A stretch of DNA of 64,000 nucleotides from Bdellovibrionota bacterium (GCA_044351795.1 JBILFA010000004.1:3-64002), one strand, 5' to 3'; numbered from the stretch's first letter, positions 1,146 through 40,080 are shown. A program made the numbers and translations. The notes: generated by a model from the sequence alone, not told the origin.

Positions 1146-1179
1146 CTCCCCTCTCCTTCTTCTCGAGGTATAAGCGCTG
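1146..1179. repeat. Direct repeat DR-c: 34-bp copy of the rep 3' core (candidate distal att site)
   Basis: ctcccctctccttcttctcgaggtataagcgctg matches 38640-38673 with one mismatch. It also matches 27298-27329 over the same core. All three copies are in the same orientation. Confidence 0.6.
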
Positions 1180-1511
1180 AGCAAATCAAGACTGGCCTCA
1201 ATTAGGCATAGGGGCTCCGTCTATTGCCCTTTGCCACACACGTTTCTGACGGCTGCGAGCGCCACTCTGCGGATCGCAACTGGAATATCAGTAGTTTATG
1301 GACTCACTGCGTCTTAGCGAGCTGTCCTAACCACAATTTACCATGCTGCATATTACTTACAGTTTAGTCAGACTCACTCTAGCTGAGCCTATGAGACGTA
1401 GGCCCCTGCTCCAGAAGGACCTAAGAGCTAAAAGAATCGCGCGGCTTCCTTGTCTACTGGTGAAACCACGGGTCAAAGCTCGTGGGTGGCTGAAAAAGTG
1501 TTTGACTTTGA

Positions 1512-2927
1512 TTGGTCAGCACTACTACATATAGCCGATTAGTTCTGCGTTATGAGGATAAGCAAGTGAAAGTGACTCAGCGCCAGCGATCAAACCCCGC
1601 AGAGAATCCTCGCTTTTGGTCAGCTAATGCCCATGGCCTTCATCCCTCGCTTGCCGCTGCATTTACCCGTGCGCACAAAACTGCAAACGTTTATGGCTCT
1701 GCTCCATATGCGCAAGATACCTACACAAAAGCTCTCGCCCATGCTGTTAGTGAACTCTTCGGGCCAACTGCGCAGGCTCACCTTGTTCCTTCGGGAACGA
1801 GCGCTAATGCTTTAGCGCTTTCTACCTTTGTTGATTCTACCTCGACTATCGTAACGCCGGCTTGCTCCCACATTGCGCACTTCGAAGTTGGGGCAATCGA
1901 GTATGCCACCCAGGGAGCGCGTATCGACCTTATTCCCGATTATATGGGGAAGATTGACGCCCGCTCGATAGATTGGAAGTTGAGGGCGCGGTCTTCCTTG
2001 TTGCCCGAACAGCTACCTCAGCCCAAGGTGCTAGTTGTGTCACAGCTCACTGAGCTTGGTACTTGCTACTCTGTCGCTGAAATGCAGGAACTCTCCGAAA
2101 TTGCTCATACTCGGGATATGAAATTGGTGGTAGACGGGGCGCGGTTATTCCAGGCGGCTCAGGCTTCCAACGTCGACCTACGACGTTTTGTTACAGACAC
2201 CGGAGTAGATGCACTTTCACTCGATCTTTCGAAATGCGGCGGGGACGGATGCCTGGTTATCTTCTTTTCGGATGAATCGATGAGCCTACAGCTGCGACGC
2301 CGTATGAAACAATGTGGTTTGGTGCGTCCCTCTGGGTTCGGTGCTGCCGCCGCGGCCGTAGAGCTCCTTGGGTCGAGCATGTGGAAGCAGCTCGCTTTGC
2401 AGGTCAATAGCCATGCATCTGCGCTAGCTCACGGCTTGGCGCGAATAGGAATCAGCACAGCATACCCCGTTCAGGGAAATTTAGTCTTTGTTCGGCTGCC
2501 ACAGGTTGTTCGAAGCCACCTTGAGACTTCACATCGTTTTTATACCTGGGACCGAGTCAAAGGGCTGGTACGTTTCGAAATAGGGCATGCAACTACACAC
2601 GAGTGGATAAAGTCGCTTCTGGATGACATCGAGGCCTGCTTGCCTTTACTTGAGGTGTTTGCATACGATGTAAAAACCTTTAGCGAAATGCCGCTCCGAA
2701 AACTTCGCATGCTCCACAACGATGGAAAAATATCAGATGAGATGTTCTTCGCTGCAGCGCAGCGATCAGTTTCGAATCTAACTGTGGGGCAGCTGCACCA
2801 GCTCCTTGAATCTGGAGTACTTACCCCTGCTGAGGTATCTGAGTTATGCATATCGGTTGCAGGAATAGAAGATGAGTTCGCTCAGTGCCACCGTAAGCTA
2901 AGGGCATGTGCCAATGGGGATTTGTAG
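1512..2927 (+). CDS. PLP-dependent threonine-aldolase-like enzyme (beta-eliminating lyase family) with a C-terminal extension
   Basis: VPSGTSANALAL, DGARL and LSLDLSKCGG (candidate PLP lysine) line up with low-specificity threonine aldolases. The start is uncertain (in-frame GTG at 1566). I cannot match roughly the last 110 aa to anything. Confidence 0.6.
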   Translation: MVSTTTYSRLVLRYEDKQVKVTQRQRSNPAENPRFWSANAHGLHPSLAAAFTRAHKTANVYGSAPYAQDTYTKALAHAVSELFGPTAQAHLVPSGTSANALALSTFVDSTSTIVTPACSHIAHFEVGAIEYATQGARIDLIPDYMGKIDARSIDWKLRARSSLLPEQLPQPKVLVVSQLTELGTCYSVAEMQELSEIAHTRDMKLVVDGARLFQAAQASNVDLRRFVTDTGVDALSLDLSKCGGDGCLVIFFSDESMSLQLRRRMKQCGLVRPSGFGAAAAAVELLGSSMWKQLALQVNSHASALAHGLARIGISTAYPVQGNLVFVRLPQVVRSHLETSHRFYTWDRVKGLVRFEIGHATTHEWIKSLLDDIEACLPLLEVFAYDVKTFSEMPLRKLRMLHNDGKISDEMFFAAAQRSVSNLTVGQLHQLLESGVLTPAEVSELCISVAGIEDEFAQCHRKLRACANGDL

Positions 2928-3036
2928 CCGCTGGGGACTTTTCTCTCCATTGGCTTGGTCGACACTAGGACCTGAATGTTGATTAGTTCGGAAGCGCTGC
3001 GAAGTACTCTGTCTTAATGTATCAAAGGAACAGGTT

Positions 3037-3381
3037 ATGATGAGTCCCTTTATTCAATTACGAAACGTCCCCAGCGCAGAACCCATGGAGGGGTTTTCTG
3101 GGAAGTTTGTCCATTCCGAATACATGACAATAGCGCGCTGGATTATTAGATCAGGCTCTATCCTTCCGGCTCATTCTCACTTGCATGAACAGGTAGCCGA
3201 AGTCCTTTCAGGGGAATTCGAGCTTACGATAGACGGGGACACCGAGGTCCTGACACCCGGAATCGTAGCCGTTATTCCGCCTAATGCTGTGCACTCGGGT
3301 CGAGCTATCACTGATTGCGAGATTATCGACGTGTTTTTCCCCGTGAGAGAGGATTATCGCTCGGCAGACACTCACACATAG
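3037..3381 (+). CDS. Cupin domain protein
   Basis: 114 aa. PAHSHLHEQVAEVLSGEFEL followed by IPPNAVHSGRA resembles the two cupin metal-binding motifs. SD-like aaaggaacagg lies upstream of the ATG. Confidence 0.65.
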   Translation: MMSPFIQLRNVPSAEPMEGFSGKFVHSEYMTIARWIIRSGSILPAHSHLHEQVAEVLSGEFELTIDGDTEVLTPGIVAVIPPNAVHSGRAITDCEIIDVFFPVREDYRSADTHT

Positions 3382-3542
3382 CAGACAGCTGGCTGGGTCA
3401 AGGATACCAGGCACTCAAATCACATTTGGGAGGGTAGCGCTAAGCTAGGAGCTTCATCACAGTTTTGTGTAGAACTCATAGCTATATTGTGGCATGAATT
3501 AAGTTGAGAGCATCTTGTTAAGGTCCAAAGTGCGGGAGGTCC

Positions 3543-4775
3543 ATGCACATTAACCTTGCGTTCCTCAGTTGCCCCGGGGGTCCCGAGCTCCTACACATCG
3601 TATTTACTTGCGACACTATCAGGCGCGAGTGCAGCAGAGGTTCGCCAGTAACAAGCAAAGACGGCCGCGGGGCATTCCGCTGGTCTGCGGCAGTCCAGGC
3701 CCTCGCTCTCTTACTAACGCACCACGCCGTTGCCGAGCTCGAGGGTAGGCCACGTGGGACGCTGGAAGGCGATAAGGGCTCTCACGCTGCTTCGCTAGAT
3801 TACGCCATCTCTAAGGAACCTGTCTGGCTCCTGGACATGTTCGGAACTACCGCGAGAGGAGACGCATTTATCAACCGGATTGTGGAGCGCGAAAACTCTG
3901 AGCGCCGTCGCCCCGGTCCAGTGGTCCTGAAAGTCCGATCAGAAGCCCTAGCCCCTACAGATGTAAAAATCCATCTGGACGGAGCTCCACTAGAGGGCAA
4001 ACAGCAGCTACTGGACTTTTGCGGGATCCTACGACGTGCGCTGTCTGTTAGCTCAGAGGGCGACGACCCGGGATACTTGAGTGGAATGCTCGAAAAATTA
4101 GTGATCGACGGAGATGCATTTCTGCGTACACTGAACCTTCAGTCCTATGTGCGGGATCTACGAGCGGATCTTAAGTTACTGGCTGATAGACCGGAGCAAG
4201 GCTGCATAATTGAGTACATAAAGAAGCAGATTAAAGAAGTCTGCATCATGAGTGAAGCGCACTACGCCTCCACCCTCGGTGGGCTGGCAGCTGACGAGCC
4301 CTTTTTATTTTCATGTTCATCGCTCATTGATGCTGGAGTCGAAGCATATGTTTCTGACCCTCATTGGCAATACTTGTTATTCCGCTTCGGTAGCGCCTTT
4401 AAGGTGCGCGGGAAGGTTCCCCCTCTTCGCATCTTTTTTGTAAATAGTGAAACCTTGTGGCAGACAAATCTTCATCATATCGATCACATCATTCGCCAAC
4501 ATCTCGCCTGCGGCATCAATGTAAAATTGGTGCCAGATGAGGCAGTGGTACAAGCAGCGCGTGATAAACGCAACATGGCCATTTTTGGCCATAAGGTGCT
4601 GCTGCATGCGACAGATCAAGTCTCGTGGGACTTAGATTTGACCGTTGAGATGAGTGCGCTGCGGGCTGCCAAGGACAAGCATTTTTATTTTCAAAGTCTT
4701 GACGGTTGTCATATAAAGGCCACGACTCGAGATCCACTTGCTCTGGTAGCGGAGTTTTCGCGCACCATGCTCTGA
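3543..4775 (+). CDS. Family-A paralog 2 fused to an uncharacterised C-terminal domain of about 230 aa
   Basis: The N-terminal part carries GAFRWSAAVQALALLLT / ASLDYAISKEPVWLLDMFG / NSERRRPGPVVL / VKIHLDG. I do not recognise the C-terminal half (PHWQYLLFRFGSAF...IFFVNSE...NMAIFGHKVLLH). Confidence 0.7.
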   Translation: MHINLAFLSCPGGPELLHIVFTCDTIRRECSRGSPVTSKDGRGAFRWSAAVQALALLLTHHAVAELEGRPRGTLEGDKGSHAASLDYAISKEPVWLLDMFGTTARGDAFINRIVERENSERRRPGPVVLKVRSEALAPTDVKIHLDGAPLEGKQQLLDFCGILRRALSVSSEGDDPGYLSGMLEKLVIDGDAFLRTLNLQSYVRDLRADLKLLADRPEQGCIIEYIKKQIKEVCIMSEAHYASTLGGLAADEPFLFSCSSLIDAGVEAYVSDPHWQYLLFRFGSAFKVRGKVPPLRIFFVNSETLWQTNLHHIDHIIRQHLACGINVKLVPDEAVVQAARDKRNMAIFGHKVLLHATDQVSWDLDLTVEMSALRAAKDKHFYFQSLDGCHIKATTRDPLALVAEFSRTML

Positions 4776-4792
4776 CGCTAAGGACCTACACT

Positions 4793-5725
4793 ATGGCAAA
4801 TAATCTTATCGTATCGGGCATTCGAAATACGGGAGAGAACTGCTCTTCGGACCCTAATATAGATGTCGAGTCCAGAGTCAACTGGAGCTCAGTAGCTGAA
4901 AGCTATGACTGGGGAAGGCCATTTCCGCCAGAGCATGTACAGAAGTTATTTGAACAAGCACCTGAGGTTCACAGGCTCCTCTTACAGGGGGCAGTGGTCG
5001 TGGATATTGGAGCGGGGACCGGCAGAATTACCGTTCCTCTGGCAAAGCAATATCCGAACAGCACATTTATAGCGGTTGATAATTCAGAGACACTGCTCCA
5101 AGTCTTATCCCGACGCTCACATGATCTATCGAAACAGCCGCAGTGTATTCACCAAGATCTCATAGCTTCTCAGCTCTTACCTTCGGGGGATGTTTATATC
5201 TTGAGTTCCGTACTGCATGCCCTTCCCGTCTGGAAGAATGTTTGCAGGGCTATTGCCGAAAGTATACGTCCAGGCGGTCTCGTAGCATTAATCGGCGAGG
5301 AGGGAGACATCTATAACCTTTCACTTGGAAGAGCTCCAGCTCAGCTGCCACCCATGCCAGCTAGCAATATCCTATCTAGCTTCTGGAAACAGTACCACGA
5401 ACTGCGCACCTCTGTAGGAGCGCCACCCGTAGAAGGAACGCAGATCGGCTGCAGCTGGGAGGCCACTAATGCTGAGGCAGTTGATTGCTTTCGTGCTCTA
5501 GGATTCAAGGAGTCAGGCAGTGCCAGTCTGCAGTGGACACGCACTGTCGAAGCTTCTGAACTTATGAGAATTGTCGATGAACGAGTTTTTTCGTCGCTTA
5601 TGGCACTTTCCCCACACCAGTTTTCGCAAATTCAAAATGGACTGCGGGCCCTCGTGTCATTACACAAAGATCTGTCCGATGAAGCTCGGTGTTTAGCGAC
5701 TCTTCGACTTATGACCAAAGAGTAA
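4793..5725 (+). CDS. Class I SAM-dependent methyltransferase
   Basis: Motif I VVDIGAGTGRITVPLA. Start refined to ATG 4793 (SD aagga 8-12 nt upstream). The track start at 4706 would overlap the upstream gene by 70 nt. Confidence 0.7.
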   Translation: MANNLIVSGIRNTGENCSSDPNIDVESRVNWSSVAESYDWGRPFPPEHVQKLFEQAPEVHRLLLQGAVVVDIGAGTGRITVPLAKQYPNSTFIAVDNSETLLQVLSRRSHDLSKQPQCIHQDLIASQLLPSGDVYILSSVLHALPVWKNVCRAIAESIRPGGLVALIGEEGDIYNLSLGRAPAQLPPMPASNILSSFWKQYHELRTSVGAPPVEGTQIGCSWEATNAEAVDCFRALGFKESGSASLQWTRTVEASELMRIVDERVFSSLMALSPHQFSQIQNGLRALVSLHKDLSDEARCLATLRLMTKE

Positions 5726-5773
5726 GACAGATATAAGCGGCTCAGGAGAAGTTAAGTATTCAGGAGATAAGGT

Positions 5774-6574
5774 ATGACTGAAGAAGCATTCGAGTCACAG
5801 TTCGCTGACGTTGAGCTCGAGGACTATAAGGACAACGCCGAGTTCTATGAGCTTGAAGAGCGAGCTCGCCCCGATGAAATGGCCATGATTCACGGTGCCG
5901 GCATGGAAGCGCTGGCTATTGCTCGATCGAGGGGAAAAGCTACCGTTCTTGATCTTTGTTGTGGTACAGGTCTCTCGCATGAGCTTTTGGTGAACGACCC
6001 GTCGATTTCGCGGATCGTAGGCGTTGACATCTCAGAGCCCTACCTGGAGTTCGCCCGGAGTGCATACGCCTCTGCTAAAACTGTCCCGTCTTATATCCTG
6101 GGTGATGTCGTCACTCATCCTCTGCCTGTTGTTGCATGGGACATAGTCATGATGTGCTCCGCTTACCATCACATCGAAGATAGTCGAAAAGTCGACTTCC
6201 TCAAGCGAGTGAGGGGATTGATCCAGCATGGAGGAAGAGGAATCTTTGCCGAGAATATTCTTCCTGCATACAGCCCTGGGGATACACAGCAGTACTCTCA
6301 ATCCGTTCGCCTGTTTTATGAGTCCGTTTTAGAGACAGCTCGCAAAGACAATCCCGCACTTCCAGAGGTTGTAGAACGCCTAATATGGCGTGTGGCCCAG
6401 TATGGGTTCGATGGTGAATATGAGTATAAGGTCAGTTATGACATCTTCCAGGCCCATTTGAATGAGGCTGGCTTAGAGGTCGTAAAGGAGCAAAAAGTTT
6501 GGCCTTCGATCTCCAACAACCTGCTCGGCACGGGTGGAAACTACGTTGTAGTGGTCAAAGCTCGAGACGCCTAG
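5774..6574 (+). CDS. Class I SAM-dependent methyltransferase
   Basis: Motif I VLDLCCGTGLS, with downstream DIVMMCSAYHH. SD aggaga lies upstream of ATG 5774. Confidence 0.75.
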   Translation: MTEEAFESQFADVELEDYKDNAEFYELEERARPDEMAMIHGAGMEALAIARSRGKATVLDLCCGTGLSHELLVNDPSISRIVGVDISEPYLEFARSAYASAKTVPSYILGDVVTHPLPVVAWDIVMMCSAYHHIEDSRKVDFLKRVRGLIQHGGRGIFAENILPAYSPGDTQQYSQSVRLFYESVLETARKDNPALPEVVERLIWRVAQYGFDGEYEYKVSYDIFQAHLNEAGLEVVKEQKVWPSISNNLLGTGGNYVVVVKARDA

Positions 6575-9312: not shown

Positions 9313-9377
9313 CACAAGCTCTTAGATTGTACTTGAAAGGCGACAGTAAGATAAGAGCACGAGTGAGAGCCGGACAG

Positions 9378-9482
9378 ATGCCGGAGATCGACACCCAGGA
9401 ACTCGACGCGCTCACTAGGGAGCACGAGAAGAGGGAACAGCAACACAATCTTGGGCTATCGCGGTCACGATTTAAGCGGTGA
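9378..9482 (+). CDS. Small conserved charged peptide (paralog of 46187-46372)
   Basis: MPEIDTQELDALTREHEKREQQHNLGLSRSRFKR. The DNA at 9365-9483 is an inverted copy of 46187-46305, and several of the differences are synonymous. The frame is open upstream, with a possible TTG start at 9333. Confidence 0.4.
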   Translation: MPEIDTQELDALTREHEKREQQHNLGLSRSRFKR

Positions 9483-10398: not shown

Positions 10399-10998
10399 TT
10401 AATGGGCCACCAGCGAGTTATACGCATCGATGATCCTCTTAGTTCTCTCAGTAGCCACCTGCTGAAGATACGGATCTAGGCTGGCTACCTTATCTGGATG
10501 ATTCATTTGCACCAATTTAAGGTAGCGGGCTTTAAGCTCTGTTCTCGAGGTCCCCGGCGAGACGCCTAATATGTAGTGCGGATCGTCTGGATCCAGATCT
10601 TCGCCGCCACCACAAGGACCTGTATCATCAGATGGATTAGGTCCGCCGTTTCCTGACCCGTAATCATCCCCCGAGTGATAGCTTCCGCTGGAGTAGGTCT
10701 TAGCCTTCTCCTGAACTTTAAATCCCAACTTTGCGAGAGCCAGTCTTCCAAGTGCTCCAACACTTCCGATGCAGGCGCGCCAGAGATAAAGCACCGCGCG
10801 CGTCACAAGTCGAAGCAGCGGGGCAAAGACTGTCAGAACCCGAACAACCAGGTGCAAGGCGAACAAAAAAATACAGGCTGCCACCAGATAGGGAACGATA
10901 ACTACCAGAACCGGCCAGGCGTGGAAGACTATCCATGCAGGTATAGCAAGAACAAAAAAGAGCGCCTCGAAAGCATTTCCTACTAGAGTCCAACCCAT
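10399..10998 (-). CDS. Membrane-anchored J-domain (DnaJ-like) protein
   Basis: The C-terminal YILGVSPGTSRTELKARYLKLVQMNHPDKV carries the HPD motif. The N-terminal approx. 90 aa are hydrophobic (2-3 TM helices), followed by a Gly/Ser/Asp-rich linker. Confidence 0.75.
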   Translation of the reverse strand: MGWTLVGNAFEALFFVLAIPAWIVFHAWPVLVVIVPYLVAACIFLFALHLVVRVLTVFAPLLRLVTRAVLYLWRACIGSVGALGRLALAKLGFKVQEKAKTYSSGSYHSGDDYGSGNGGPNPSDDTGPCGGGEDLDPDDPHYILGVSPGTSRTELKARYLKLVQMNHPDKVASLDPYLQQVATERTKRIIDAYNSLVAH

Positions 10999-11080
10999 GC
11001 AAAGTTCCTATCGATACCTACATTACGATACGACAAAATGCTCCTGCATGATGTAACGTTTTTGTAAAAACCCCTCGAGA

Positions 11081-29531: not shown

Positions 29532-29800
29532 GGAAGCAGACGCTTTAATTTAGCAGACCGCTATTTTAAACCCGCTCAGACTTATACCTGAGTTCTTGAG
29601 TTTGTATAGCGTTAATTGGCCGGGTGTGCTCGCCTCTCCGCGCTGCCTTCCTCACGTGGCAAACCTAGACGATCATGTACGTCGAACTTTACTTTCTATG
29701 AGACCTCATAGAACGATTTTAATTTACATTCAGGAGGATCTACGTTACGAGTGGGCCGCCTGACTTTCTCTATTCCTCTTAAGTACACGTGAGGGGGTTT

Positions 29801-30817
29801 ATGTTTTCATCTCAACACAGCTCGTCCTTTCCCTTTTTGCCGAGACAAAGGGAGTCTGGGGCCTCGGAAAGCACCCAGGGGCCGATGATTGCTCTCTCTG
29901 ATCGTTCACGGGATATTTTCTCTTCTATCCTTGCAGAAGTCGCGGGCGGTCCCTACTCTAACCAAGAGCTACCGCGTTACCTAACAGCTGCAACGAGACT
30001 TTGGGCGGAGAATCTTCCCGAGCTAGATAGAGCCCGTTCTCTATTGGTAGACCACGCCGTCCCTGCAGTTCTGTTAACGAACCTTCCCCAGGATGAGACG
30101 GTCCCACCGACCGGACCAGACGGCCGCATGATGAAGAAGACATCTGTTAGTGAAGCGGTGAGCGTCGCCTTGCTGCATCCCTTAGGGCGGCTGGCCACGC
30201 ATGCAGACAAACGAGACGGTGCTGTTGTTAGTGACCTGTATCCAAAAAAGTCTGATGCGGCAGCCCAGCTTGGCTCAAATTCAGTGTTTTTGGAGTGGCA
30301 TACAGACGAAGCTTTTCATGACGTCCCACCATCTTTTGTTTGCCTCTACGGTGTACGAGGAGAACCCTTAGCACAAACCCTTATCGCTGAGTTCAATTGC
30401 TCTGAGCTGCCACCGGAGATCGCGAGAGTCCTTTCCGAACCTCACTTCAGCATTCGATCGGACGGTTCCCATGCTGTGTTAGGGCAAAGAAAGAAAGCTG
30501 CTGTTCTTGACGGCGAAGGAGCCGATGCGCTGGTTAGATATGACCCGGTATTCACGGATTTCGACAACGCTGAGGCTGAGCTCGCCTTCGCTCAGTTTGA
30601 AGCATTTACGTTGAGAAAGTCGCTTAGCTTTACCATAGATACGGGGCAGGCACTTATCTTCAATAATAAAATCGGGATACATGCGAGAACAGAGTTTCCT
30701 CCCCGATTTGATGGCACTGATAGGTGGATCATCAAGTCGCAAGTAGTACCCGTAAGCACCCCCGAAGAGAAGTTTCACAATTCCAATCGATTTTGGCTAA
30801 ACCCAATTGGAGCTTGA
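29801..30817 (+). CDS. Fe(II)/2-oxoglutarate dioxygenase, clavaminate-synthase-like (VioC/AsnO/TauD superfamily)
   Basis: LEWHTDEAFHDVPPSFVCLYGVRGEPLAQT carries the HxD facial-triad start, followed by the FH..P....L.C.R....T pattern of CAS-like amino-acid hydroxylases. The distal IGIHARTEF follows. The start is ATG 29801 (the track GTG at 29789 is also possible). Confidence 0.7.
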   Translation: MFSSQHSSSFPFLPRQRESGASESTQGPMIALSDRSRDIFSSILAEVAGGPYSNQELPRYLTAATRLWAENLPELDRARSLLVDHAVPAVLLTNLPQDETVPPTGPDGRMMKKTSVSEAVSVALLHPLGRLATHADKRDGAVVSDLYPKKSDAAAQLGSNSVFLEWHTDEAFHDVPPSFVCLYGVRGEPLAQTLIAEFNCSELPPEIARVLSEPHFSIRSDGSHAVLGQRKKAAVLDGEGADALVRYDPVFTDFDNAEAELAFAQFEAFTLRKSLSFTIDTGQALIFNNKIGIHARTEFPPRFDGTDRWIIKSQVVPVSTPEEKFHNSNRFWLNPIGA

Positions 30818-30821
30818 GCTC

Positions 30822-31712
30822 ATGAACCAAGAAATACAAAAGCATACCGAACTCGGATTATCCGACCTACTAATAAAACCCTTCCTGTATGAATCTAGCG
30901 CTCAGTACAGCGTAGTCCTCCCCGAGTACCATTTCGCCGAAGGGACGGACATGGAGATGGCCGCGAGCAAGCTGAATAAGTTGGCGAGTCGACGAGAAAA
31001 GCCAGTCACGTTAGTGGACTGCGGGGCAGGCCCCGGTCGAGTGTGGGAATATCTAGGGGCGGATTTTGCCACAGTTGTCGCTGTCGAGCCGAGTCGAGGC
31101 ATGTGGAGAGCTGACCCGCCCTCTAACGTTAAATACGTGGAGTCAGGTGCTTTTGAATTTCTGAAAGCCAATCCAAGTACCGAAAGAATCGTTTCATTTC
31201 TTTGGTCAGTGAACTACCCACTACTGAGCTTTTTCGAGAAGTACGATCCAAAACAAGGAAAGGTCATTCAATTCGACGCACACAAGGGAGATGCTGATTG
31301 TAGAGCGGCAGTGCGCGAGGTGCTAGAGCGCAACTCTGGCTCCGACTATTTTATCATGGTGTTCGATGATGAGTCGCCCGAACAGCAATTTGTTACCTCT
31401 GTTTGGGAACGGGAAGCTCCATTTCCTTTCAATGACCGTTCCTATACTCGGCGACTCTTATTAGATGAAATGCAACGCTTCGCAGAGAAAAGTGGTGCCC
31501 TTTTCACGCAGGAGCATCACGCGGGTTTTGCGGACTATGGGCCCGGAGGTGTTGCCTTGAGTCGCATGCTCAATTTCCATCTGAGGGGACACTTCAACAA
31601 TGACCCAGAAGTTGTACAAGCCGCAGCGACTTTTCTTAGCTCCTACCGTGATGACAGCACTACTAAGGTGCCTGTGGGGATGCACATACTTCAGCTGCAG
31701 GCTGTTCCATGA
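30822..31712 (+). CDS. Class I SAM-dependent methyltransferase
   Basis: Motif I LVDCGAGPGRVWEYL. The ATG at 30822 lies 4 nt after the upstream stop. The track start at 30807 is a non-ATG codon inside the upstream gene. Confidence 0.65.
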   Translation: MNQEIQKHTELGLSDLLIKPFLYESSAQYSVVLPEYHFAEGTDMEMAASKLNKLASRREKPVTLVDCGAGPGRVWEYLGADFATVVAVEPSRGMWRADPPSNVKYVESGAFEFLKANPSTERIVSFLWSVNYPLLSFFEKYDPKQGKVIQFDAHKGDADCRAAVREVLERNSGSDYFIMVFDDESPEQQFVTSVWEREAPFPFNDRSYTRRLLLDEMQRFAEKSGALFTQEHHAGFADYGPGGVALSRMLNFHLRGHFNNDPEVVQAAATFLSSYRDDSTTKVPVGMHILQLQAVP

Positions 31713-32536
31713 GCACTCCTTGCGTTCTCATTACCGGGGCCTCGGGTACGTTCGGGCTAGCGCTTACAGATTTCTTTCTGAATACCGGTTGGTCTGTGAT
31801 TGCTGGGGTGCGTCGTGCTGCCGCGGAATCATATGTCAGAGAGCGCTTTGGAGCGGCGGTTTCGAACCAACGGCTCTCCATACTGTCCTTAAATGCGCTT
31901 GATTTATCACAGTGCCACGAAGTCCTGAAGGTGTATCTGCAATCGAATCCAGCCCCAAATGCGCTCATCAACAACGCTGCGACGGATTCATGGGAGGCAA
32001 TTGAGGACTTAACCCCGGAAGTTCTCATTGAAGTGCTACAGGTCAACTTGGTATTTCCCGCAATTCTAACGCGAGTTCTTATTAAACACTGGCGAGATGC
32101 CAAGCAGAGCGGCTCTATCCTTCACATTTCGTCTCTGCTTGCTAACTTTGGGGCTCTCGATAGCAGTGCCTATGCTGCTAGCAAGGGGGGTCTAGAGGCG
32201 TTCTCGAGAGCCGTTGCGGTTGAAGCAGGGCCTTATGGTATCCGCTCGAATGTTCTTCGTATTGCTGCGTGTCAACATGGTCTGACATCGCGTCACGAGC
32301 TACCGAGCCTAGATATTCGCTTCACAAGCGCTAACAACAACTCTACTAATATCGAGCTCATCCCCTTACAGCGACGAGGTGATATCGCCGACTTCTGTCG
32401 TGCTGCATCTTTTCTCGTTGGTCCAGAGGCGTCCTTTATTACAGGACAGGAGTTGACTGCTGATGGTGGACTCTCGGTTGTCTATCCTGGGTATTCTTCA
32501 CCGAGCTGCGGCCAGTTAGGAGCCGAAAATGTTTGA
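31709..32536 (+). CDS. Short-chain dehydrogenase/reductase (SDR)
   Basis: ITGASGTFG (TGxxxGxG), LINNAAT and YAASKGGLEAF (YxxxK). ATGA overlap with the upstream gene. Confidence 0.85.
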   Translation: MSTPCVLITGASGTFGLALTDFFLNTGWSVIAGVRRAAAESYVRERFGAAVSNQRLSILSLNALDLSQCHEVLKVYLQSNPAPNALINNAATDSWEAIEDLTPEVLIEVLQVNLVFPAILTRVLIKHWRDAKQSGSILHISSLLANFGALDSSAYAASKGGLEAFSRAVAVEAGPYGIRSNVLRIAACQHGLTSRHELPSLDIRFTSANNNSTNIELIPLQRRGDIADFCRAASFLVGPEASFITGQELTADGGLSVVYPGYSSPSCGQLGAENV

Positions 32537-33779
32537 ACGGGTTGTTAATCCATCTGCTTTTGCACTCCCCTCTGGGCTTGGTCAGCTCGAGAGGTCGACA
32601 GTGTCTATATCTGGAGATGACCATGAAGTAATGGCGGCATTTGCCCATCGGGCCGTAGTCGAAGGAGCGAACGTAGTACTTCTGCCAAGTTCGGGTGGAC
32701 AAGTTACGCTACCTTCTTTTAACGACAACATTATCGTCAACCTTCACTGCCCAAAAGATTCGCCTACCATTATTTCTACACAAAGCTCCGATGGGCGCCT
32801 GGGACCTCTTCATTCGGGAACCCTGACCTTGTACACTTCCGGAAGTACGGGGGAGCCAAGGCCTGTAACCTTGTCCCGACAGCAGCTGGATTTAACGGCG
32901 CGATGGTATCGTGACATATATGGTCTAACTCCCGACTCCGTCATAGTGAGTTCCCTTCCGCTTACTTACAACTTTTCCTTCATAGCAGGCGTATGGACTG
33001 CGCAGACTACTGGATGCGTTTATCAGCATGTGTCGCAAGAGCGCTTTGCCCTTGGCATCGAGGCAGCTCGATTGCATGCTGATAAGGTCATTGTGCTCGC
33101 GAATCCCGTGGTTATTGAGTCAATGATGAACGAGCACAGTCTCAGTGCTTTCAGTAATATCTTATTCGATACTGGCGGGGCTCCCTTGAGTACAACAGCA
33201 TTGCGCATGTTTAGGGATCGCATAGGAGATATTCGTGAAGGGTACGGGCTAACGGAAACCTGCTCGCTCACACACTTTGATACCGAGGGCACAGAGGACT
33301 CGTTAGGTACTGTAGGGCGGGCGCTGACCGGGGTAAATTTTGATATTCGTCACACACCTGCACGGCAGCCTGAGTTATGGATAGCATCACCTAATCTAGA
33401 ACAAGGGGGTTTTAGCGCGGATCGCTTAGTCGACGGGTATTACCGCACTGGCGATTTAGCACGCATAGATGCGGGCGGGCGCTTGCGACTTTTGGGCCGA
33501 TCTTCTGATCACTGTATTGGGGGGTATTATCCACGCGATACTCTCGACATTCTCGGCCCCCTCTTGGGTATGCGATGTGCATTGGTGCAACACGCTGGGC
33601 CGAATAGCGTGCTTATCAAGTTGAGACACATTGATGAGGAGCAACTGCCTGCACGTATGGCAGCGCTCGTATCCGAGACACACCAGATACCCTACAGTGG
33701 CGTTCGCGTGATGAGCCAGACCTCACCTCTTACCCACTCTCTTAAGTTAACTCGTGAGCTCGGGGGGCAGACCAACTGA
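32529..33779 (+). CDS. Adenylate-forming enzyme (AMP-dependent synthetase/ligase, short form)
   Basis: LYTSGSTGEPRPV, GYGLTET and YRTGDLA core motifs. At 416 aa it is shorter than typical acyl-CoA ligases. 8-nt overlap with the SDR gene. Confidence 0.75.
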   Translation: MFERVVNPSAFALPSGLGQLERSTVSISGDDHEVMAAFAHRAVVEGANVVLLPSSGGQVTLPSFNDNIIVNLHCPKDSPTIISTQSSDGRLGPLHSGTLTLYTSGSTGEPRPVTLSRQQLDLTARWYRDIYGLTPDSVIVSSLPLTYNFSFIAGVWTAQTTGCVYQHVSQERFALGIEAARLHADKVIVLANPVVIESMMNEHSLSAFSNILFDTGGAPLSTTALRMFRDRIGDIREGYGLTETCSLTHFDTEGTEDSLGTVGRALTGVNFDIRHTPARQPELWIASPNLEQGGFSADRLVDGYYRTGDLARIDAGGRLRLLGRSSDHCIGGYYPRDTLDILGPLLGMRCALVQHAGPNSVLIKLRHIDEEQLPARMAALVSETHQIPYSGVRVMSQTSPLTHSLKLTRELGGQTN

Positions 33780-35578
33780 TGTGTGGCCTTGTCGGAATAA
33801 TTCAACTTCGCGGTGAGATTACGTCCAATCAGGTGGACCAAGTACGCTGGGGTGTCGAGCGCCTAAAACACCGCGGCCCCGACGGTGCCCAGTACTGGGC
33901 TTCTGGGAACTTTTGTGTGGCGCACGCAAGGTTGTCAATATTCAACCATGAGTCCAGCGCTTCTCAGCCTTTTGTATCAGACCGAGCTGTCCTTGCGTGC
34001 AATGGCGAAATCTACAACTGTCGCGAACTCGCGGCTGAATTGGGTATAGACTACCACTCTCTCAGAAGCGACTGTGAAGTCGTGTTACGGGGATACGAAG
34101 TATGGGGCATATCTGTGGTGGCGCGTCTGAGGGGAGATTTCGCATTTGCCCTTTTTGATCGGATCTCTCACAAGGCTTACCTCGTTCGAGACCATATCGG
34201 GGTTAAGCAGCTAGTCTATACTCGTATCGGTGATGCCATAGCATTCGCTTCAGAAGCCAAAGCATTAGCAGGCCTCGGTGGTTTGGTGCTGGAGCCGTCT
34301 GTCGATAAGATTGCCGAAGACTGGGTGATGGGGTTTTGGGGCGATAAGGCGTCTACCTACTTCAAATCGGTAGACCACATCAAACAGGGGTGTTTTCTGG
34401 AGTGCTCAGTAGAGGGGCCCCCTAGGGAAGTCACTTATTGGTCTCCCCTGGACCTGCCGATCCGCTCGATGTCAAAAGATGTCTTTGTGAGTCAATTCGA
34501 TGACACGCTAAAGACAGCCACCGCAGTGCGGCTAATGGGTCAGGCTAAGATAGGTACCCTTCTTTCCGGCGGTGTAGATAGCAGTCTCACTACAGCAATG
34601 ACTGCCAAGGCACTACCGAGGGTGACCTCCTACACTACCACCTACTCTAAAAGTGCGACCAACGAAGATCTAGTTCACGCCGAATTAGTAGCCCAGAAGT
34701 ACCCAAATATTGAACACAGGAAGGTAGATAATGTCCCGGAAGACTTCTCATGGCAGAATCTCTCGACGACTTCCTATCACATGGAGGAAGTCGTATGGGA
34801 TAGGGTGTACTGGGCAATCCTCAACAACTATCGCGCTGCTTCTTCAGATGGGCATCGGGTTATCCTGAGTGGACAGGGTTCTGACGAGCTTTGGCTCGGT
34901 TACTTTTTCACGTTCCCTCACTACAGAGTGTGCGGTTCACAGTGGCAGAAGGATTATCTTATTAACGATTTTTCTCAGGATTCTTTAAGATTCATGGACG
35001 CGCTAGACCCGGCTTTCCTGAATAGCGAACGAGCCAAGGAAATAGTCGCGTCCAATATCGAGCGGAACTTGCTCCCTTATGGGGATCGGGACAAATTAAA
35101 TGGAATCGCTCACTGGGCATTTCGGACGCATCTTCAGAGTAATTTGATGCAAGAGGACCGGCTTTCTATGGCCAGTTCAGTTGAATGCAGAGTACCTCAT
35201 GTCGATATCGAGGTAGTAAAGCTCGCTTATGCTACTCCCAGCTATTTAAAGCTTTTAGATGGGCGCGAAAAGTATCCTGTTCGACAGGTAGCTGCGCGAT
35301 GGCTTCCGATTCAGGTCGCTAACCGCAGCAAGTTCGCCTTCCCTGAGAGTCCGGATTCATATAACAGTGAGATTCATGCAAGACTTCGGGATGGTACTAT
35401 CCCGTCGCTAAACGAGCCAATTCTAGGAGCGATATTCAAGGAAGAGGTTCTAAAGCTTGCGCGCACCAATCCTGCTTCACTTGCCCCTCAGCTTCTATGG
35501 CGCATCGTAGCCATAGCAAACTTCAGCGCTATTTTTACTTCGTCCTTGAAGACGCTCACTGTGCATGATACTCGGTAG
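33779..35578 (+). CDS. Asparagine synthetase B-type glutamine amidotransferase
   Basis: N-terminal MCGLVGI (Ntn Cys2 nucleophile present) and the PP-loop LLSGGVDSS. The start overlaps the upstream stop (TGATG). Confidence 0.85.
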   Translation: MCGLVGIIQLRGEITSNQVDQVRWGVERLKHRGPDGAQYWASGNFCVAHARLSIFNHESSASQPFVSDRAVLACNGEIYNCRELAAELGIDYHSLRSDCEVVLRGYEVWGISVVARLRGDFAFALFDRISHKAYLVRDHIGVKQLVYTRIGDAIAFASEAKALAGLGGLVLEPSVDKIAEDWVMGFWGDKASTYFKSVDHIKQGCFLECSVEGPPREVTYWSPLDLPIRSMSKDVFVSQFDDTLKTATAVRLMGQAKIGTLLSGGVDSSLTTAMTAKALPRVTSYTTTYSKSATNEDLVHAELVAQKYPNIEHRKVDNVPEDFSWQNLSTTSYHMEEVVWDRVYWAILNNYRAASSDGHRVILSGQGSDELWLGYFFTFPHYRVCGSQWQKDYLINDFSQDSLRFMDALDPAFLNSERAKEIVASNIERNLLPYGDRDKLNGIAHWAFRTHLQSNLMQEDRLSMASSVECRVPHVDIEVVKLAYATPSYLKLLDGREKYPVRQVAARWLPIQVANRSKFAFPESPDSYNSEIHARLRDGTIPSLNEPILGAIFKEEVLKLARTNPASLAPQLLWRIVAIANFSAIFTSSLKTLTVHDTR

Positions 35579-35581
35579 CCC

Positions 35582-36103
35582 ATGAGACGTTATTGTATTT
35601 TTCTTATCGCCGAATCGCCTGCCCTTGCGCTGATAGAGGATATCAGAATACTGCTCGATCCATTGAGCGGTGTTGTTCCTGCTCACCTTACGGTGGTGTT
35701 TCCTTTTTCTACAGAGATGTCTCCTAAGGTTATTATCGACCATGTGGCTGATCGCGCTGCTCACTTCTCTCCCATCGAGACGACCTTGGTAGGTTGTCAC
35801 CTTCAAAACGATGGATACATTCACATTTCAGTCCTGGATCAGCAGAAGCAACTATCCGCGCTACATGCGCAGCTGTATTCGGGTAGCCTCGAGTCGTTCT
35901 TGGATCCGAATTTTCCATTCCTGCCTCACATAACTATTGGGCGCTACACGGCTACGTCTCAAGACGGCGCAGAAAAACAGATACAGAGACTTTCCTTCCC
36001 AATTTGTTTGCGTTTAAGCAGGTTAGTCTTAGAGGAGATCCTTGAGGACGATAAATCGAGCCCTCTGCTGGAAGTGACGTTAGGAGGTAAGGTATCAACA
36101 TGA
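35582..36103 (+). CDS. 2H phosphoesterase (LigT / 2'-5' RNA ligase-like)
   Basis: Two H-x-T/S motifs at the expected spacing, AHLTVVFPF and LPHITIGR. 173 aa. Confidence 0.7.
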   Translation: MRRYCIFLIAESPALALIEDIRILLDPLSGVVPAHLTVVFPFSTEMSPKVIIDHVADRAAHFSPIETTLVGCHLQNDGYIHISVLDQQKQLSALHAQLYSGSLESFLDPNFPFLPHITIGRYTATSQDGAEKQIQRLSFPICLRLSRLVLEEILEDDKSSPLLEVTLGGKVST

Positions 36104-38001
36104 ATGTATCTATAAACTCATCAAATAACTCAAGCCCTCAGCCATCGGCAGAGAGTATCTCGGAAAAGATAGGCGGGGTGATCTCGACTTTTCAGGAGTT
36201 TGCCACTCTAGCCACTCATCTTAGGCTGGATAGGGAGAGCCGTGGTTACATTGCCCGATTGTCGTATCCCCTTTTGCGTGCCATCGCGACTCTAGAGTGT
36301 GCGGCGGCGGAGGTTACAAAGGCACCGCTATCTCCCGCTCGCCTCGGTGACGTGCCAGAGGGCGTCGTTGGAGATTTATCGGTTTCTTTCCCCCACTTGA
36401 TGAAGGAGGACCGCCGCCGATTTCCAGAGCTAGCCAGTGAGATCGCTGCGGTTGCAGTTCAGCAACGAGAGATAGGATTTTTAGAGGTGTATAATACCGG
36501 TCCTTATCTGAATGCCGTGCTCGATCGTCGAACCTTCATTCCTGCGGTGTTGTCTCAAGTGGCCGAGCTCGGAGCGCTTTATGGGCAGACCGATACACAT
36601 AGAGGAGAGGCTGCCTACATCGATTTTTCAAGTCCGAACATCGGAAAGAGCCTTCACGTTGGGCATGCAGGATCTACGATTGTTGGCCATGTACTTTCAA
36701 ATATCTTTGATGCGGCTGGCTACTCGGTGCTGCGGGTTAACTATATTGGAGATTGGGGGGTCGCTGCAGCCAAGCTCCTTCAAGGTGTTCGAACACAGGG
36801 AGACCCGCCAAGAAGTCTATCCCCTGAAGAAGCGCTAGACAGATACTCAACTATCTATTCCACCACTTCTCAGCGCTATAAGGAAGAGGAGGCTCTTCAA
36901 CAGAGCGTGAATCATGTATTGTTGCAATTACAATCCAGAGACAGTCAGACGCTTGATCTTTTGGACTCCATACGCCGCCGCTCCGTCGACGGTTTGAACG
37001 AAATTTATGCCAAGCTCGGTGTATACTTTCATGCCTATGTGGGAGAGAGCTTCTACGAGGAATCTCTTGCAGATACTATAAGCGAATGCCTCGCTCGTGG
37101 AATCGCTCAACAAGAGGCGACTGCGTGTCCTGTAGTCGTTGATTTGTGCGATAAAAGGCTGCCATCTTTTGTTCTCGCTAGGGAGGATGGCACCTCGACA
37201 TACTTGGCACGAGATGTTGCATCCTTGAGGGTACGAAAAGAATTAACCGCTGCTGATATCTCCCTATATGTTGTGGGAAGTGAGCAGAGGCTTCATCTGG
37301 CGCAGGTCATTGAAACGGCTACACGGATGGGATACATCGCGCCTGGAGAGGCACACCATGTAGTGATTGGCTTACTCACGAAGTACGGAGAAAAAGTATC
37401 GTCACGGGATGGCTCGTCTCTTGCTCTTGAAGGTTTTCTCGCATTTCTTGAGAAGGAAGCGGCAACTGTAATAGCAAGCCGACAGCCAGACATGGCAATT
37501 GAGGAGCAACGACGCTTGGCGAGCCAACTAGCGAGGGGCGCTCTATTCTTCACTTTCTCTCAGCGAAATCCCGACAAAGGATTTGAGTTTGATGTCCAGA
37601 AGATATTCGCGCTAGATGGGCGAAGCGCGTTATACCTTCAGTATGCGGCCACTCGAGCGGATAGCCTTCTGACGAAAGCAGGTACAGCCAATAAAGAAAT
37701 TTCAGCTCTCAACTGGGAGGAAGTTTGTCGTCTCATGCCTAAGGCTGCTGAGGAATTGGTGTTTGAAATATCACGACTACCGATAGCAATCGAAAATGCT
37801 CTTCAGCTTCGCTCTCCCCATCCGCTCGCAGATAGTGGTTTTCGCCTTGCCCAACGCTTCAACCGATTCTTCAATGAGGTGCAGGTTAAGGGCGCTGAGG
37901 GAGATGTTGGGCAGTTTTACCGGCATCTGGTTAAAGCATTCCGGCAGACACTAGGAAATATACTGACCATGATTAACATAGAAGTCCCTGAGCGGATTTA
38001 G
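36100..38001 (+). CDS. argS: Arginine--tRNA ligase paralog (class I aaRS, full length)
   Basis: SSPNIGKSLHVGHAGSTIVGHVLSNIFDAAGYSVLRVNYIGDWG carries the HIGH region and the ArgRS-specific GDWG. It also has KYGEKVSSRDG (degenerate KMSK), a DALR-type anticodon-binding end YLQYAATRADSLL, and an N-terminal additional domain (GPYLNAVLD). ATGA overlap with the 2H gene. Confidence 0.8.
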   Translation: MNVSINSSNNSSPQPSAESISEKIGGVISTFQEFATLATHLRLDRESRGYIARLSYPLLRAIATLECAAAEVTKAPLSPARLGDVPEGVVGDLSVSFPHLMKEDRRRFPELASEIAAVAVQQREIGFLEVYNTGPYLNAVLDRRTFIPAVLSQVAELGALYGQTDTHRGEAAYIDFSSPNIGKSLHVGHAGSTIVGHVLSNIFDAAGYSVLRVNYIGDWGVAAAKLLQGVRTQGDPPRSLSPEEALDRYSTIYSTTSQRYKEEEALQQSVNHVLLQLQSRDSQTLDLLDSIRRRSVDGLNEIYAKLGVYFHAYVGESFYEESLADTISECLARGIAQQEATACPVVVDLCDKRLPSFVLAREDGTSTYLARDVASLRVRKELTAADISLYVVGSEQRLHLAQVIETATRMGYIAPGEAHHVVIGLLTKYGEKVSSRDGSSLALEGFLAFLEKEAATVIASRQPDMAIEEQRRLASQLARGALFFTFSQRNPDKGFEFDVQKIFALDGRSALYLQYAATRADSLLTKAGTANKEISALNWEEVCRLMPKAAEELVFEISRLPIAIENALQLRSPHPLADSGFRLAQRFNRFFNEVQVKGAEGDVGQFYRHLVKAFRQTLGNILTMINIEVPERI

Positions 38002-38121
38002 TAGCCTTTTGTGACCCGCGACCTGGAGGTACCAGGCCATGCAAAGCAGTTAGGTTCCCCATCGCTACTATCAGTCCTAATGGTGAAACTGTCCTGCCAG
38101 GTAGCATGAGAACCTCTTTCT

Positions 38122-38490
38122 TTACGTTCGCTCATCCTGAGTTTTGCACTGGTCAATAGGTGGACTAAGCGTTGACAAGTCAGGCAAGGACCGCACCTCG
38201 CCGAAGAGATCAATTTGTTGACGGAAAGCGTCTAGAAGAGCTCTTCTACGTTGGCCGTCTAACATCACCCTCCCTTTGTTGTCATCAACACACCAAGAAA
38301 GCACATATTGATCTGGCGCTACTACCAGTTGGTATACTGGATAATGAGCTACAACAATAACGTGCGGCAGAATATTAACCGCAAATCCCGGACGTGCAGG
38401 AAGCTTTTCGTCCGCAAGATCTTCGATAATCCCCTCTCGGGGGCCTATGAATCTCTTAAGTGCATCTTTTACGGCCTGCTGGATGTTCAT
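38122..38490 (-). CDS. Hypothetical protein
   Basis: Probable start ATG 38490 (MNIQQAVKDAL). No recognisable motif. Confidence 0.4.
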   Translation of the reverse strand: MNIQQAVKDALKRFIGPREGIIEDLADEKLPARPGFAVNILPHVIVVAHYPVYQLVVAPDQYVLSWCVDDNKGRVMLDGQRRRALLDAFRQQIDLFGEVRSLPDLSTLSPPIDQCKTQDERT

Positions 38491-38577
38491 AATGGCACCC
38501 CGATACTTAAATCCCACTAGACCGTGAAAGACTATGATGGACAATTCACCGCGAGGGATTTACTTACCAGAACCCTA

Positions 38578-40080
38578 TCATGATTTCGCCTCAAAGTGAT
38601 CAATCAACATCCTGCGCTGGATAGTAGCAAACAGGACCCCTCCCCTCTCCTTCTTCTCGAGGTAAAAGCGCTGGTTAAACGACAGCGCATTATCAAAGGC
38701 CTCCCTCTCAAAGCTCACTTTCTCTTCCTCACTGAGAGCAGCCCAAAATGTATCGAACTCCTGCTCTAGTTCAGACGGCTTCTCAGGAGCCTTAGCTTCA
38801 GGCTGAACTGCTGGCTCCTGCTTGCGCGTAGGCTTTACAGCGAGTCCAGCTGAGACAACGCGAAGTTCAGACTTAGCCTCCTCTTTGCTCTTTAGAAAGC
38901 CGCTCGGTGGCGAGTAATCATCCTGGATAGCAGTCACAAGAAACCCTGCGGGGTTGCTCGAGCAGCGCTTATCCCCTCGCTGCATCATCCAATCGAAGAT
39001 AGCTATCTTGCTAGCGATGCGATTTGCCTCATAGCTCCTCACAAGCTTTGACGCTTTCGCTGGAGAGACCCCCCTGGCCTTTAGCTGCTCAAAGGCCGCG
39101 TCCTGCTCTGTAGACAACAGGAGCTTCGCTTCAGAGGCTCCCCTATCGAAAACCACTTTCCAGTTACCCTTGGTGACCTTTATGAAGCGCTCTTCCTTTG
39201 GAAGCGGCTTAATAAAGCCCATCCCTTCAAGCTCTAAGAGAGGCTTAGAGAACAAGCGCTTTACTTCAGCCACAGGCGTCGTGCGCGATATGCCGACGTG
39301 CTCATAGGCGAAGCGCAACAGGTCATACTCAAGGCGTGCCCTGCGATAGAAGTGCTTGTCGAGGAATCGGTACATACGCTTTGAGATAGCGCTCTTTAGT
39401 TGCTTGTAGATGTCTAAGTCGATCTCTTTAAGGTTACCGGCCTTAAAGCTTCTAAAGACGATATCGTTCCACACGAAGTGAGAGCGGCCAGCGTTTTCGT
39501 CTCCTGGGTTAAGGCTCTTTTTGTTCGCGCGGCGCTCCTTGTCGTACACCGTCACTGAGTCCAGTAAGTGAAAGCTCTCGTTGACCCAGCACTGCTCTTC
39601 CTTGGACCACCACGCCTTGTCGTAAAAGAGCGTAATGCTCACCCAGCGCTTGAGGGACTCATCGATGCGCCTGTAGCTCTTCGCTGAGTCGTTCCACCCC
39701 AAAAGCTTAATGAGCTCGTACGAAGAGAAGTACACGGTGCGACTTGCAAAGCGCTGCTTGTCGGTAAGCTGGATGAGCCCAAGGATAACCTCCTCGTCTA
39801 AGGCGGTAGGAAGCCCATACATGTCAGAGGCAGCGATGGTTAACTTGCGAGTGATGTGCTGGCCAATGCTCTGGTCGAAGATGGTGTCGTGAAACTCTAG
39901 CTTCTTCTGCCCATCGGGAACTCGGTCAGCAAGGCTCGCAAGAGGAAACTCCGCAAAGTTCAGTTCGTCCTTGAAGCGCTCAGCATGGTTCGACGGTGAG
40001 AACTCGTCACTGCCCTCGGGTAGAGAGGACACGATCTCAAAGAGAGGCTCGGTCTGTTTTGCATGGTTTGAGTTGGTCAT
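38578..40080 (-). CDS. Plasmid replication initiator (replication initiator protein A / RPA-like)
   Basis: ELNFAEFPLASLADR...YGLPTALDEEVILGLIQLT resembles the RPA N-terminal domain. The gene sits directly downstream of an iteron array. Confidence 0.7.
   Translation of the reverse strand: MTNSNHAKQTEPLFEIVSSLPEGSDEFSPSNHAERFKDELNFAEFPLASLADRVPDGQKKLEFHDTIFDQSIGQHITRKLTIAASDMYGLPTALDEEVILGLIQLTDKQRFASRTVYFSSYELIKLLGWNDSAKSYRRIDESLKRWVSITLFYDKAWWSKEEQCWVNESFHLLDSVTVYDKERRANKKSLNPGDENAGRSHFVWNDIVFRSFKAGNLKEIDLDIYKQLKSAISKRMYRFLDKHFYRRARLEYDLLRFAYEHVGISRTTPVAEVKRLFSKPLLELEGMGFIKPLPKEERFIKVTKGNWKVVFDRGASEAKLLLSTEQDAAFEQLKARGVSPAKASKLVRSYEANRIASKIAIFDWMMQRGDKRCSSNPAGFLVTAIQDDYSPPSGFLKSKEEAKSELRVVSAGLAVKPTRKQEPAVQPEAKAPEKPSELEQEFDTFWAALSEEEKVSFEREAFDNALSFNQRFYLEKKERGGVLFATIQRRMLIDHFEAKS
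38582..38673. repeat. Direct repeat DR-a: the resident rep 3' end (candidate attB-derived core)
   Basis: Counterpart of 27240-27329 and 1146-1179. Confidence 0.7.

Follow-up and report, generated by a model that had tools for sequence, protein, structure and literature searches.

The stretch of DNA analysed here, the window, comprises 64,000 nucleotides of an assembly filed under Bdellovibrionota bacterium (GCA_044351795.1 JBILFA010000004.1:3-64002). It belongs to a plasmid replicon whose source is lake-water metagenomes and whose longest contig measures ~66 kb. The subject of the analysis is the replication-initiator gene, rep, and in particular its 3' end, which recurs as direct repeats (DRs) at the borders of two accessory islands that lie one behind the other downstream of the gene and which we examine as a possible attachment (att) site. 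The features that define this locus are the following, with positions counted from the first letter of the window:

38578-40080, minus strand: rep, encoding a 500-aa replication initiator (Pfam RPA, 7e-14, and Rep3_N)
38573-38703, minus strand: DR-a, proposed attL, with rep-proper sequence upstream, the core (38640-38673) and then the tail that now completes Rep
27362-38572: island 2, ~11.2 kb
27231-27361, minus strand: DR-b, proposed hybrid att site between the islands, with a decayed rep-like arm (27332-27372), the core (27298-27331) and an intact former Rep tail
25841-26923, minus strand: tyrosine integrase gene (int) of island 1
1189-27230: island 1, ~26 kb
1146-1188, minus strand: DR-c, the core-only remnant TTTGCTCAGCGCTTATACCTCGAGAAGAAGGAGAGGGGAG

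Rep homologues number 583 at E<=1e-20, and the C-terminal tail is conserved to <50% identity. The closest cultured relatives are found on plasmids of Planctomycetota, with 40-48% amino-acid identity; the labels of metagenome-assembled genomes carried by other relatives are mixed and do not fix the host. A rep allele with 87% identity (P0002) co-occurs in the same sample.

The repeated end of rep

The final ~90 bp of rep (38582-38671) recur at 27240-27329 with 7 mismatches in 90 nt, all at the positions given by the first-pass annotation, and ungapped homology extends to 131 nt at 84% identity (38573-38703 versus 27231-27361). The 34-nt core of this repeat is present a third time at 1146-1179, with one mismatch to 38640-38673, as had likewise been noticed, and with three mismatches to 27298-27331. 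All three core copies (38640, 27298 and 1146) lie on one strand in direct orientation. A degenerate 23-nt core pattern, with <=2 mismatches allowed, has exactly three matches in the window, against 0.01 expected from shuffled sequences. On the sense strand of rep the core reads TACCTCGAGAAGAAGGAGAGGGGAG and codes for Y-L-E-K-K-E-R-G; the last 29 codons of the gene (YLEKKERGG...HFEAKS, then the stop) fall within the repeated segment.

All tail copies were aligned in the sense orientation of rep and anchored on the Tyr codon of YLEKKERGG. The homology of DR-b to rep runs from ~40 nt upstream of the core to just beyond the stop codon, and the frame of the 27240 copy reads ...KEAVHKALVINMLLYLEKKERGGVLFATIQRRMLIDHFEVRSK, followed by a TAG stop of its own at 27233-27235. 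Over the 25 tail codons YLEKKERGGVLFATIQRRMLIDHFE, DR-b differs from DR-a by three synonymous and no nonsynonymous changes, a signature of purifying selection. Directly upstream of the tail, 8 of 13 codons are nonsynonymous, and the FNQRF motif, invariant in all relatives above ~65% identity, is destroyed. The switch between the two patterns is sharp and sits at TTA/TAC, the left edge of the core. The ending of DR-b, EVRSK-stop, resembles those of the real Rep alleles P0002 (EVQSK-stop) and P0004 (EVSRK-stop). Codon pattern and ending together thus point to a tail that evolved in a functional rep and was joined at the core edge to sequence free of Rep constraint. With only synonymous changes in the tail and a stop of its own, the 27240 copy is, as the first-pass annotation had proposed, the displaced 3' end of a rep allele, and DR-b looks, by its sequence, like a hybrid att site and unlike a decaying in-place duplication. 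For DR-a and DR-b, both flanking direct repeats and a rep kept intact by a supplied copy are therefore present.

The core stands out from the remainder of the gene also as DNA. The rep of the relative L040 has 86% amino-acid and 76% nucleotide identity to that of the window; over the whole gene, the longest identical run between the two is a block of 41 nt, CTCGAGAAGAAGGAGAGGGGAGGGGTCCTGTTTGCTACTAT, located at the core, with the next longest measuring 17 nt, and sliding identity peaks at 95-97% precisely at the core. The core was also considered as a generic dispersed repeat, an outcome that would have spoken against the first-pass proposal, and this was rejected: 596 Gb of species-representative genomes contain 13 single matches in unrelated taxa, none with nearby Rep homology or similar flanks, and the window holds the three copies only. 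Thirteen matches are of the order expected by chance for a purine-rich 23-mer.

In one of the lake metagenome runs (X4), the window interval 38630-39049 is represented by a rep variant with 7 differences clustered at 38680-38719, just upstream of the core. That the X4 contig breaks off within the core region hints at another allele with an identical core. Promoter and terminator scans at both junctions found nothing.

A mis-assembly that joins two co-occurring plasmid strains at their common core could also give such a structure. The sample does hold two rep alleles, and the Logan unitigs break at the 34-nt identical stretch. In run X1, however, int, island 2 and rep are covered at a uniform depth of ~7x, X2 and X3 contain the same pieces, and the identical stretches (29-34 nt) are far below read length. 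Moreover, the decayed arm and core at 27298-27372 are joined to island 2, a junction that the joining of two true rep genes cannot give, and a like structure is present in independent assemblies (L005, L012, L002-L004). We therefore consider an assembly artefact hardly credible.

Displaced Rep tails and integrases in related plasmids

Within the Rep clade at >=70% identity, displaced tails recur, always downstream of rep, in direct orientation and behind different cargo. L005 and L012 (Rep 71%) possess a single 286-aa gene between rep and the displaced tail, which has a perfect 41-nt block in common with the working tail and a different ending (…LEVREK-stop). In L002-L004 (Rep 74%), rep is followed by a SnoaL gene, a 114-aa gene and then 68 codons of a Rep C-terminus that has diverged strongly and ends in a stop of its own. 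Relatives showing the same repeats with no insertion polymorphism had been named in advance as evidence against the proposal; the relatives carry different inserts at the same site. With the 38-residue tail as query, an exhaustive HMMER scan over 1.84 billion cluster representatives recovers seven proteins, all 70-139 aa long, one of them the L005 orphan; at least four of the others (P0242, P0244, P0246 and P0247) possess non-Rep N-termini fused to the Rep tail and are located on separate contigs of 1-38 kb. A word-indexed protein search with the 68-aa open reading frame (ORF) of DR-b returned only the query itself. In the distant Rep subclades (62-64% and 45-48%), no extra tails were found within <=10 kb, and defence genes are located directly behind rep.

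L005 was also considered as a case of three tandem tail copies, and this was rejected: copies 2 and 3 form a perfect duplicate pair of 125 bp with an IS1634-family element between them. The two 100%-identical repeats (3085-3209 and 4869-4993) flank an insertion sequence of 1659 bp with an IS1634-family transposase. Target duplications of 8-514 bp are documented for the IS1634 family (PMC2266710), and copies 2 and 3 are therefore counted as one displaced tail; the 125-bp repeat is likely a long target-site duplication, which here duplicated the displaced Rep tail. The same process, a long target-site duplication by a transposon, could be invoked for the repeats of the window, and for the L005 pair it is the right explanation. 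However, no transposase was found at the edges of island 1 or island 2, and the 16% of positions at which DR-a departs from DR-b follow an allele-like pattern, with a synonymous tail and different endings, unlike a decaying identical duplicate. Copies c1 and c2 of L005 are allele-like too. For the window, such a duplication is very improbable.

Defence genes fill the region directly behind rep in many relatives, even where no displaced tail is seen. Four such regions contain type IIG/Eco57I-like restriction-modification (RM) systems, type ISP RM with a reverse transcriptase and a helicase, and type I-E and I-F cas genes:

L036, 11558-17716: defence region behind rep
L038, 12792-20774: defence region behind rep
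L002, 18346-21491: defence region behind rep
L005, 11870-19680: defence region behind rep

The ORF at 25841-26923 encodes a tyrosine integrase, as first annotated; it is intact, comprises 360 aa, matches PF00589 (7e-35) over profile positions 2-171 of 172 and is full length in comparison with 78%-identical orthologues. The gene starts 310 nt downstream of the DR-b stop codon and has the orientation of rep. More distant relatives (55-58% identity) are found close to tRNA-Met, 127-145 nt past the 3' end of the gene and again in the same orientation (L008, L009, L011); they belong to chromosomal elements with a DUF3987 protein, accompanied in L008 and L009 by HNH and terminase genes. A target 3' end followed by int is the canonical layout for such enzymes, which the arrangement at DR-b reproduces. 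Between the rep core and the 3' half of tRNA-Met no convincing similarity was found, a comparison judged by eye only, without statistics.

Two other plasmids of this Rep clade, L001 and L005, also have an orthologue of the integrase downstream of rep (78% and 84% identity, respectively). In L001, rep is followed by two small ORFs, an excisionase-like 68-aa gene (phrog_66, 2.7e-10) directly upstream of int, and int itself, which starts 1.2 kb behind the rep stop. Upstream of the L005 orthologue lies a Shosta-like gene pair with a counterpart (55% and 32% identity) in the window's island 1.

The remnants could also be scars of cointegrates, i.e. of related plasmids fused by homologous recombination in the rep 3' region, with the second rep, origin and par later deleted. 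The co-occurrence of P0002 in the same sample fits such fusions, as do the differing upstream limits of the remnants (-11 to -110 nt), a piece of island 1 (9360-9482) that copies a backbone repeat (46187-46312), and the tail-less DR-c, which is what a deletion scar might look like. Yet at least seven remnants all fall in the last ~210 nt of a 1500-nt gene, most of them in ~135 nt, and some of the inserts consist of one 1.3-kb gene (L005, L002). No extra iterons, parA or rep 5' fragments were found: the iteron pattern of the origin has 8 matches in the window against 0.1 expected, every one at 40229-40631, and no second set is present in the 64 kb. On account of the confinement to the rep end, the lack of second iteron, par or rep 5' pieces and the single-gene inserts, fusion scars are disfavoured, and neither the change at the very edge of the core, where selected codons give way to unselected ones, nor the integrase and excisionase context agrees with them. 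We hold them to be unlikely.

A proposed attachment site within rep

Our preferred explanation, held with moderate confidence, is site-specific tandem accretion at an att site inside rep, where each module supplies a replacement Rep tail. The last ~90 nt of rep would hold the attachment site, and the attP of a module would mimic rep from a few tens of nucleotides (~30-45) before the core as far as the stop codon. Recombination of attP with the rep site would be the work of a tyrosine integrase, most probably the product of 25841-26923, and would place the module directly behind the core; its own final 25-30 codons would then complete Rep, and the tail previously in use would be left, orphaned, at the module's distal end. 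Repeats of this event would stack modules, the newest adjoining rep. Island 1, with int and defence genes, would have arrived first. Island 2, a biosynthetic operon that lacks an integrase, would have followed; it would have been mobilized in trans, in the manner of a cis-mobilizable element, or would have lost an int of its own. DR-c would be an outer junction that has decayed or that used a secondary site. Which enzyme was the catalyst, in what order the events took place and whether any module is mobile today are matters that we infer from the arrangement. Tandem accretion would explain why rep is intact, why the orphan tails are allele-like and switch at the core edge, why the core is over-conserved and why the cargo at this one site varies between plasmids, as well as the genomic context of the integrase.

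The first-pass annotation had called the rep 3' end an integration hotspot, and this idea is supported in part. The coding pattern of DR-b, the hyper-conservation of the core, the recurrence in relatives, the geometry of int and the module of L001 speak for it; DR-c, an island 2 without a recombinase and integrases that do not adjoin a tail do not. The layout that had been read as DR-c, a 26-kb island, DR-b, an 11-kb island and DR-a stands as far as three direct copies and an int beside DR-b are concerned, but DR-c is not a displaced rep 3' end.

Several observations weigh against accretion as outlined. DR-c contains only the core and ~11 nt upstream of the TTA/TAC anchor, reading FAQRLYLEKKERGER and a stop (…ERGER-stop); its homology to rep ends abruptly on both sides, and the oldest Rep tail, which a simple model expects at this place, is absent. 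Island 1 is consequently flanked by repeats of the rep end only in part, and since DR-c is core-only, it is uncertain where the 26-kb island ends on its outer side and whether it stems from a single integration. DR-c may have arisen by later deletion, by secondary-site integration or excision, or as the relic of a module with a tail-less attP. In orphan tails, the upstream limit of rep homology varies (~-11, -30, -45 and -110 nt). No recombinase or excisionase is present among the scanned genes of island 2, whose one unscanned ORF (74 aa, 27468-27692) is too small for a recombinase, and near the int of the window neither an excisionase nor a recombination directionality factor could be recognised. 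A frameshift interrupts the int of L005, which is located 4.7 kb past the displaced tail; L045-47 possess a 77% int orthologue with no tail within 1.3 kb upstream, so that adjacency of int and tail is not universal. Arm-type sites were not detected: the four island arms share 40 9-mers, against 7-74 in controls, which is not significant, and a 12-mer candidate that occurs twice is equally not significant, as 2 of 100 shuffles do as well. In PLSDB, the JGI metagenomes and IMG/VR no near-identical plasmid, and so no island-free one, was found, the scan of the JGI metagenomes yielding 11 loci, only one of them in the close clade. In four lake metagenome runs the integrated form alone is seen and junctions of excision or of an empty site are not, though the Logan contigs of these runs have low depth and cannot reveal rare forms.

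Some of these points would suit a RecA-dependent capture, in which circular modules with a ~130-bp rep tail recombine homologously with the resident tail and the integrase is a bystander or serves another site. One crossover in 130 bp of homology yields the same architecture; island 2 and the small modules of L005 and L002 have no recombinase, int does not adjoin the tail in L005 and L045-47, and arm-type sites were not detected. But such a capture leaves unexplained why a 25-41-nt block is conserved far beyond the rest of rep and why DR-c keeps just that block with abrupt edges, and 131 nt at 84% identity are a poor RecA substrate. Orthologues of int are, furthermore, repeatedly linked to the same rep clade. 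Capture by RecA is, in our judgement, quite unlikely.

In its widest form, the site-specific accretion favoured here would give the rep 3' end, in this plasmid clade, the part that tRNA genes play elsewhere: a dedicated landing pad throughout the family, used by integrase-bearing defence islands as well as by integrase-less cassettes of 1-11 kb, with captures that swap the last 25-30 residues of the initiator. This extension is tentative, and we would sooner doubt it than adopt it.

Tandem accretion with cis-mobilizable elements (CIMEs) is known from ICESt1/ICESt3, integrative and conjugative elements (ICEs) at the 3' end of fda in Streptococcus thermophilus (PMC5704250; for the term, see ICEberg 2.0, PMC6323972). 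Like such ICE/CIME arrays, the window has three direct att copies at the 3' end of one protein-coding gene, the internal site being hybrid, and one element with an integrase next to an att-flanked neighbour without recombination genes; island 2 shares this last feature with cis-mobilizable elements. Unlike in these arrays, the target is a plasmid replication-initiator gene and not a chromosomal housekeeping gene, the islands have no conjugation module, the outermost site is truncated, and any mobility is putative. Genomic islands of Dehalococcoides stack at the tmRNA gene ssrA (PMC3146451); they too are tandem, bounded by direct repeats of the target 3' end and variable in cargo at a conserved site. 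Their target is a chromosomal RNA gene, whereas that of the window is a protein-coding plasmid gene, and the repeat must therefore also encode a working C-terminus. SGI1 inserts at the 3' end of the protein-coding gene trmE and restores it, and dusA-targeting islands use the 5' end of their gene (PMC8409611). As at trmE, the element in the window would bring a substitute 3' end and leave the target intact; the targets of SGI1-type islands are chromosomal, however, and their integrases unrelated as far as tested. The tRNA-Met islands and phage satellites with tyrosine integrases (L008, L009, L011) have the same integrase family and a similar distance of 130-310 nt from target 3' end to int, but a different target sequence.

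Integrons and the pdif modules of Acinetobacter place small recombinase-less modules between repeated recombination sites on a plasmid, and the small recombinase-less modules of the window and its relatives (1.3-11 kb) likewise lie between repeated sites. The sites of the window are not alternating 28-bp XerC/D sites as in pdif modules, nor are they attC-like hairpins: single-strand folds of DR-a, DR-b and DR-c have z-scores of -0.82 to +0.39. In integrons the integrase is fixed beside the site, whereas here the newest insert comes between it and rep. An integron was ruled out by these z-scores and by the displaced integrase.

Integrative islands normally anchor in genes that their hosts must keep, such as tRNA, tmRNA and housekeeping genes, and the initiator is the one indispensable gene of a plasmid. 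It is this target, the plasmid's own initiator gene, that is unusual; in other respects the arrangement looks like tandem accretion of the known type. The literature searched, a partial coverage that does not prove novelty, contains no description of a rep 3' end as such a target. If an att site does exist in the rep 3' end, a landing pad travels with a whole plasmid family, and the pile-up of cargo behind rep (RM, Shosta, AbiE, cas genes, reverse transcriptase) would be explained. Orphan Rep tails would then be a simple marker for delimiting cargo modules in metagenomic plasmids. Each capture would swap the last 25-30 residues of the initiator, so that cargo gain would rewrite its C-terminus and could alter the behaviour of Rep (copy number, incompatibility).

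Island cargo and plasmid backbone

Neither island differs from the backbone in GC composition. Island 1 contains, in addition to int, the following genes:

24703-25731: HNH endonuclease
21675-24497: type IIG RM enzyme
18444-21678: DEAD helicase and T5orf172 protein
16278-17252, plus strand: second recombinase, an XerC-like tyrosine recombinase
13952-15335: Shosta
11123-12705: AbiEi/AbiEii
1512-6574: methyltransferases, cupin and beta-eliminating lyase

The features of island 2 are a 140-aa ORF adjoining rep, a 218-aa ORF and two coding blocks:

28752-29531, minus strand: methyltransferase
29789-38001, plus strand: compact operon

The operon encodes a TauD-like dioxygenase and a methyltransferase-like protein, an SDR and an AMP-binding enzyme, an amidotransferase of the AsnB type, a protein resembling LigT/2'-5' RNA ligase and an ArgRS paralogue of full length. 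It has the look of a cluster for small-molecule biosynthesis that includes an enzyme of the tRNA-synthetase type or a self-resistance copy.

The backbone possesses genes for a relaxase, a coupling protein, a VirB11-like ATPase, ArdC and RadC, besides the following elements of replication and partition:

40229-40631, plus strand: eight TGGGTCAAAGCACGGTA-like iterons, mostly at 23-bp spacing, in the origin region upstream of rep
41721-42569: ParA
42980-43660: centromere-like repeat array

No tRNA gene and no Rfam family was found in the 64-kb window. A predicted 236-aa ORF at 40077-40787 (minus strand) overlaps the rep start and contains all eight iterons. Relatives with a visible upstream gene have an ORF of 156-237 aa, without a Pfam hit, at the equivalent position; the ORF of the window may be a real protein or just a reading frame through the origin. 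The array at 42980-43660 consists of ~30 overlapping matches in ~7 clusters, with a TGAAGTTC-like unit at 8-bp phase, and sits within a predicted ORF (42824-43711) beside HTH_17 and ParA; it is probably the partition centromere. A short second TGAAGTTC-like cluster adjoins the iterons (40350-40410). Near the partition region lies another tyrosine-recombinase gene, a backbone integrase fragment of 134-146 aa (44260-44700, plus strand).

Repeats of ~240 bp, 76-88% identical, are located at 46364-46602 and 47484-47717, upstream of the 90-aa/RadC and ArdC genes. They are conserved in L001, L002 and L012 at 75-78% and may be leading-region regulatory elements. The related partial copy in island 1 (9360-9482) is inverted relative to 46187-46312.

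Two further direct repeats occur in two copies each. One of 51 nt (10958-11008 and 15575-15625) brackets the AbiE-Shosta block of island 1, and one of 68 nt (50245-50312 and 54792-54859) brackets the backbone region with a subtilase gene and a second AbiEii; the copies of these repeats are 73-81% identical. The subtilase gene (50588-52663, 691 aa) contains four tandem 99-nt repeats at 51974-52369, 64-82% identical to the first, which encode Cys/Asp-rich thrombospondin-type-3-like units.

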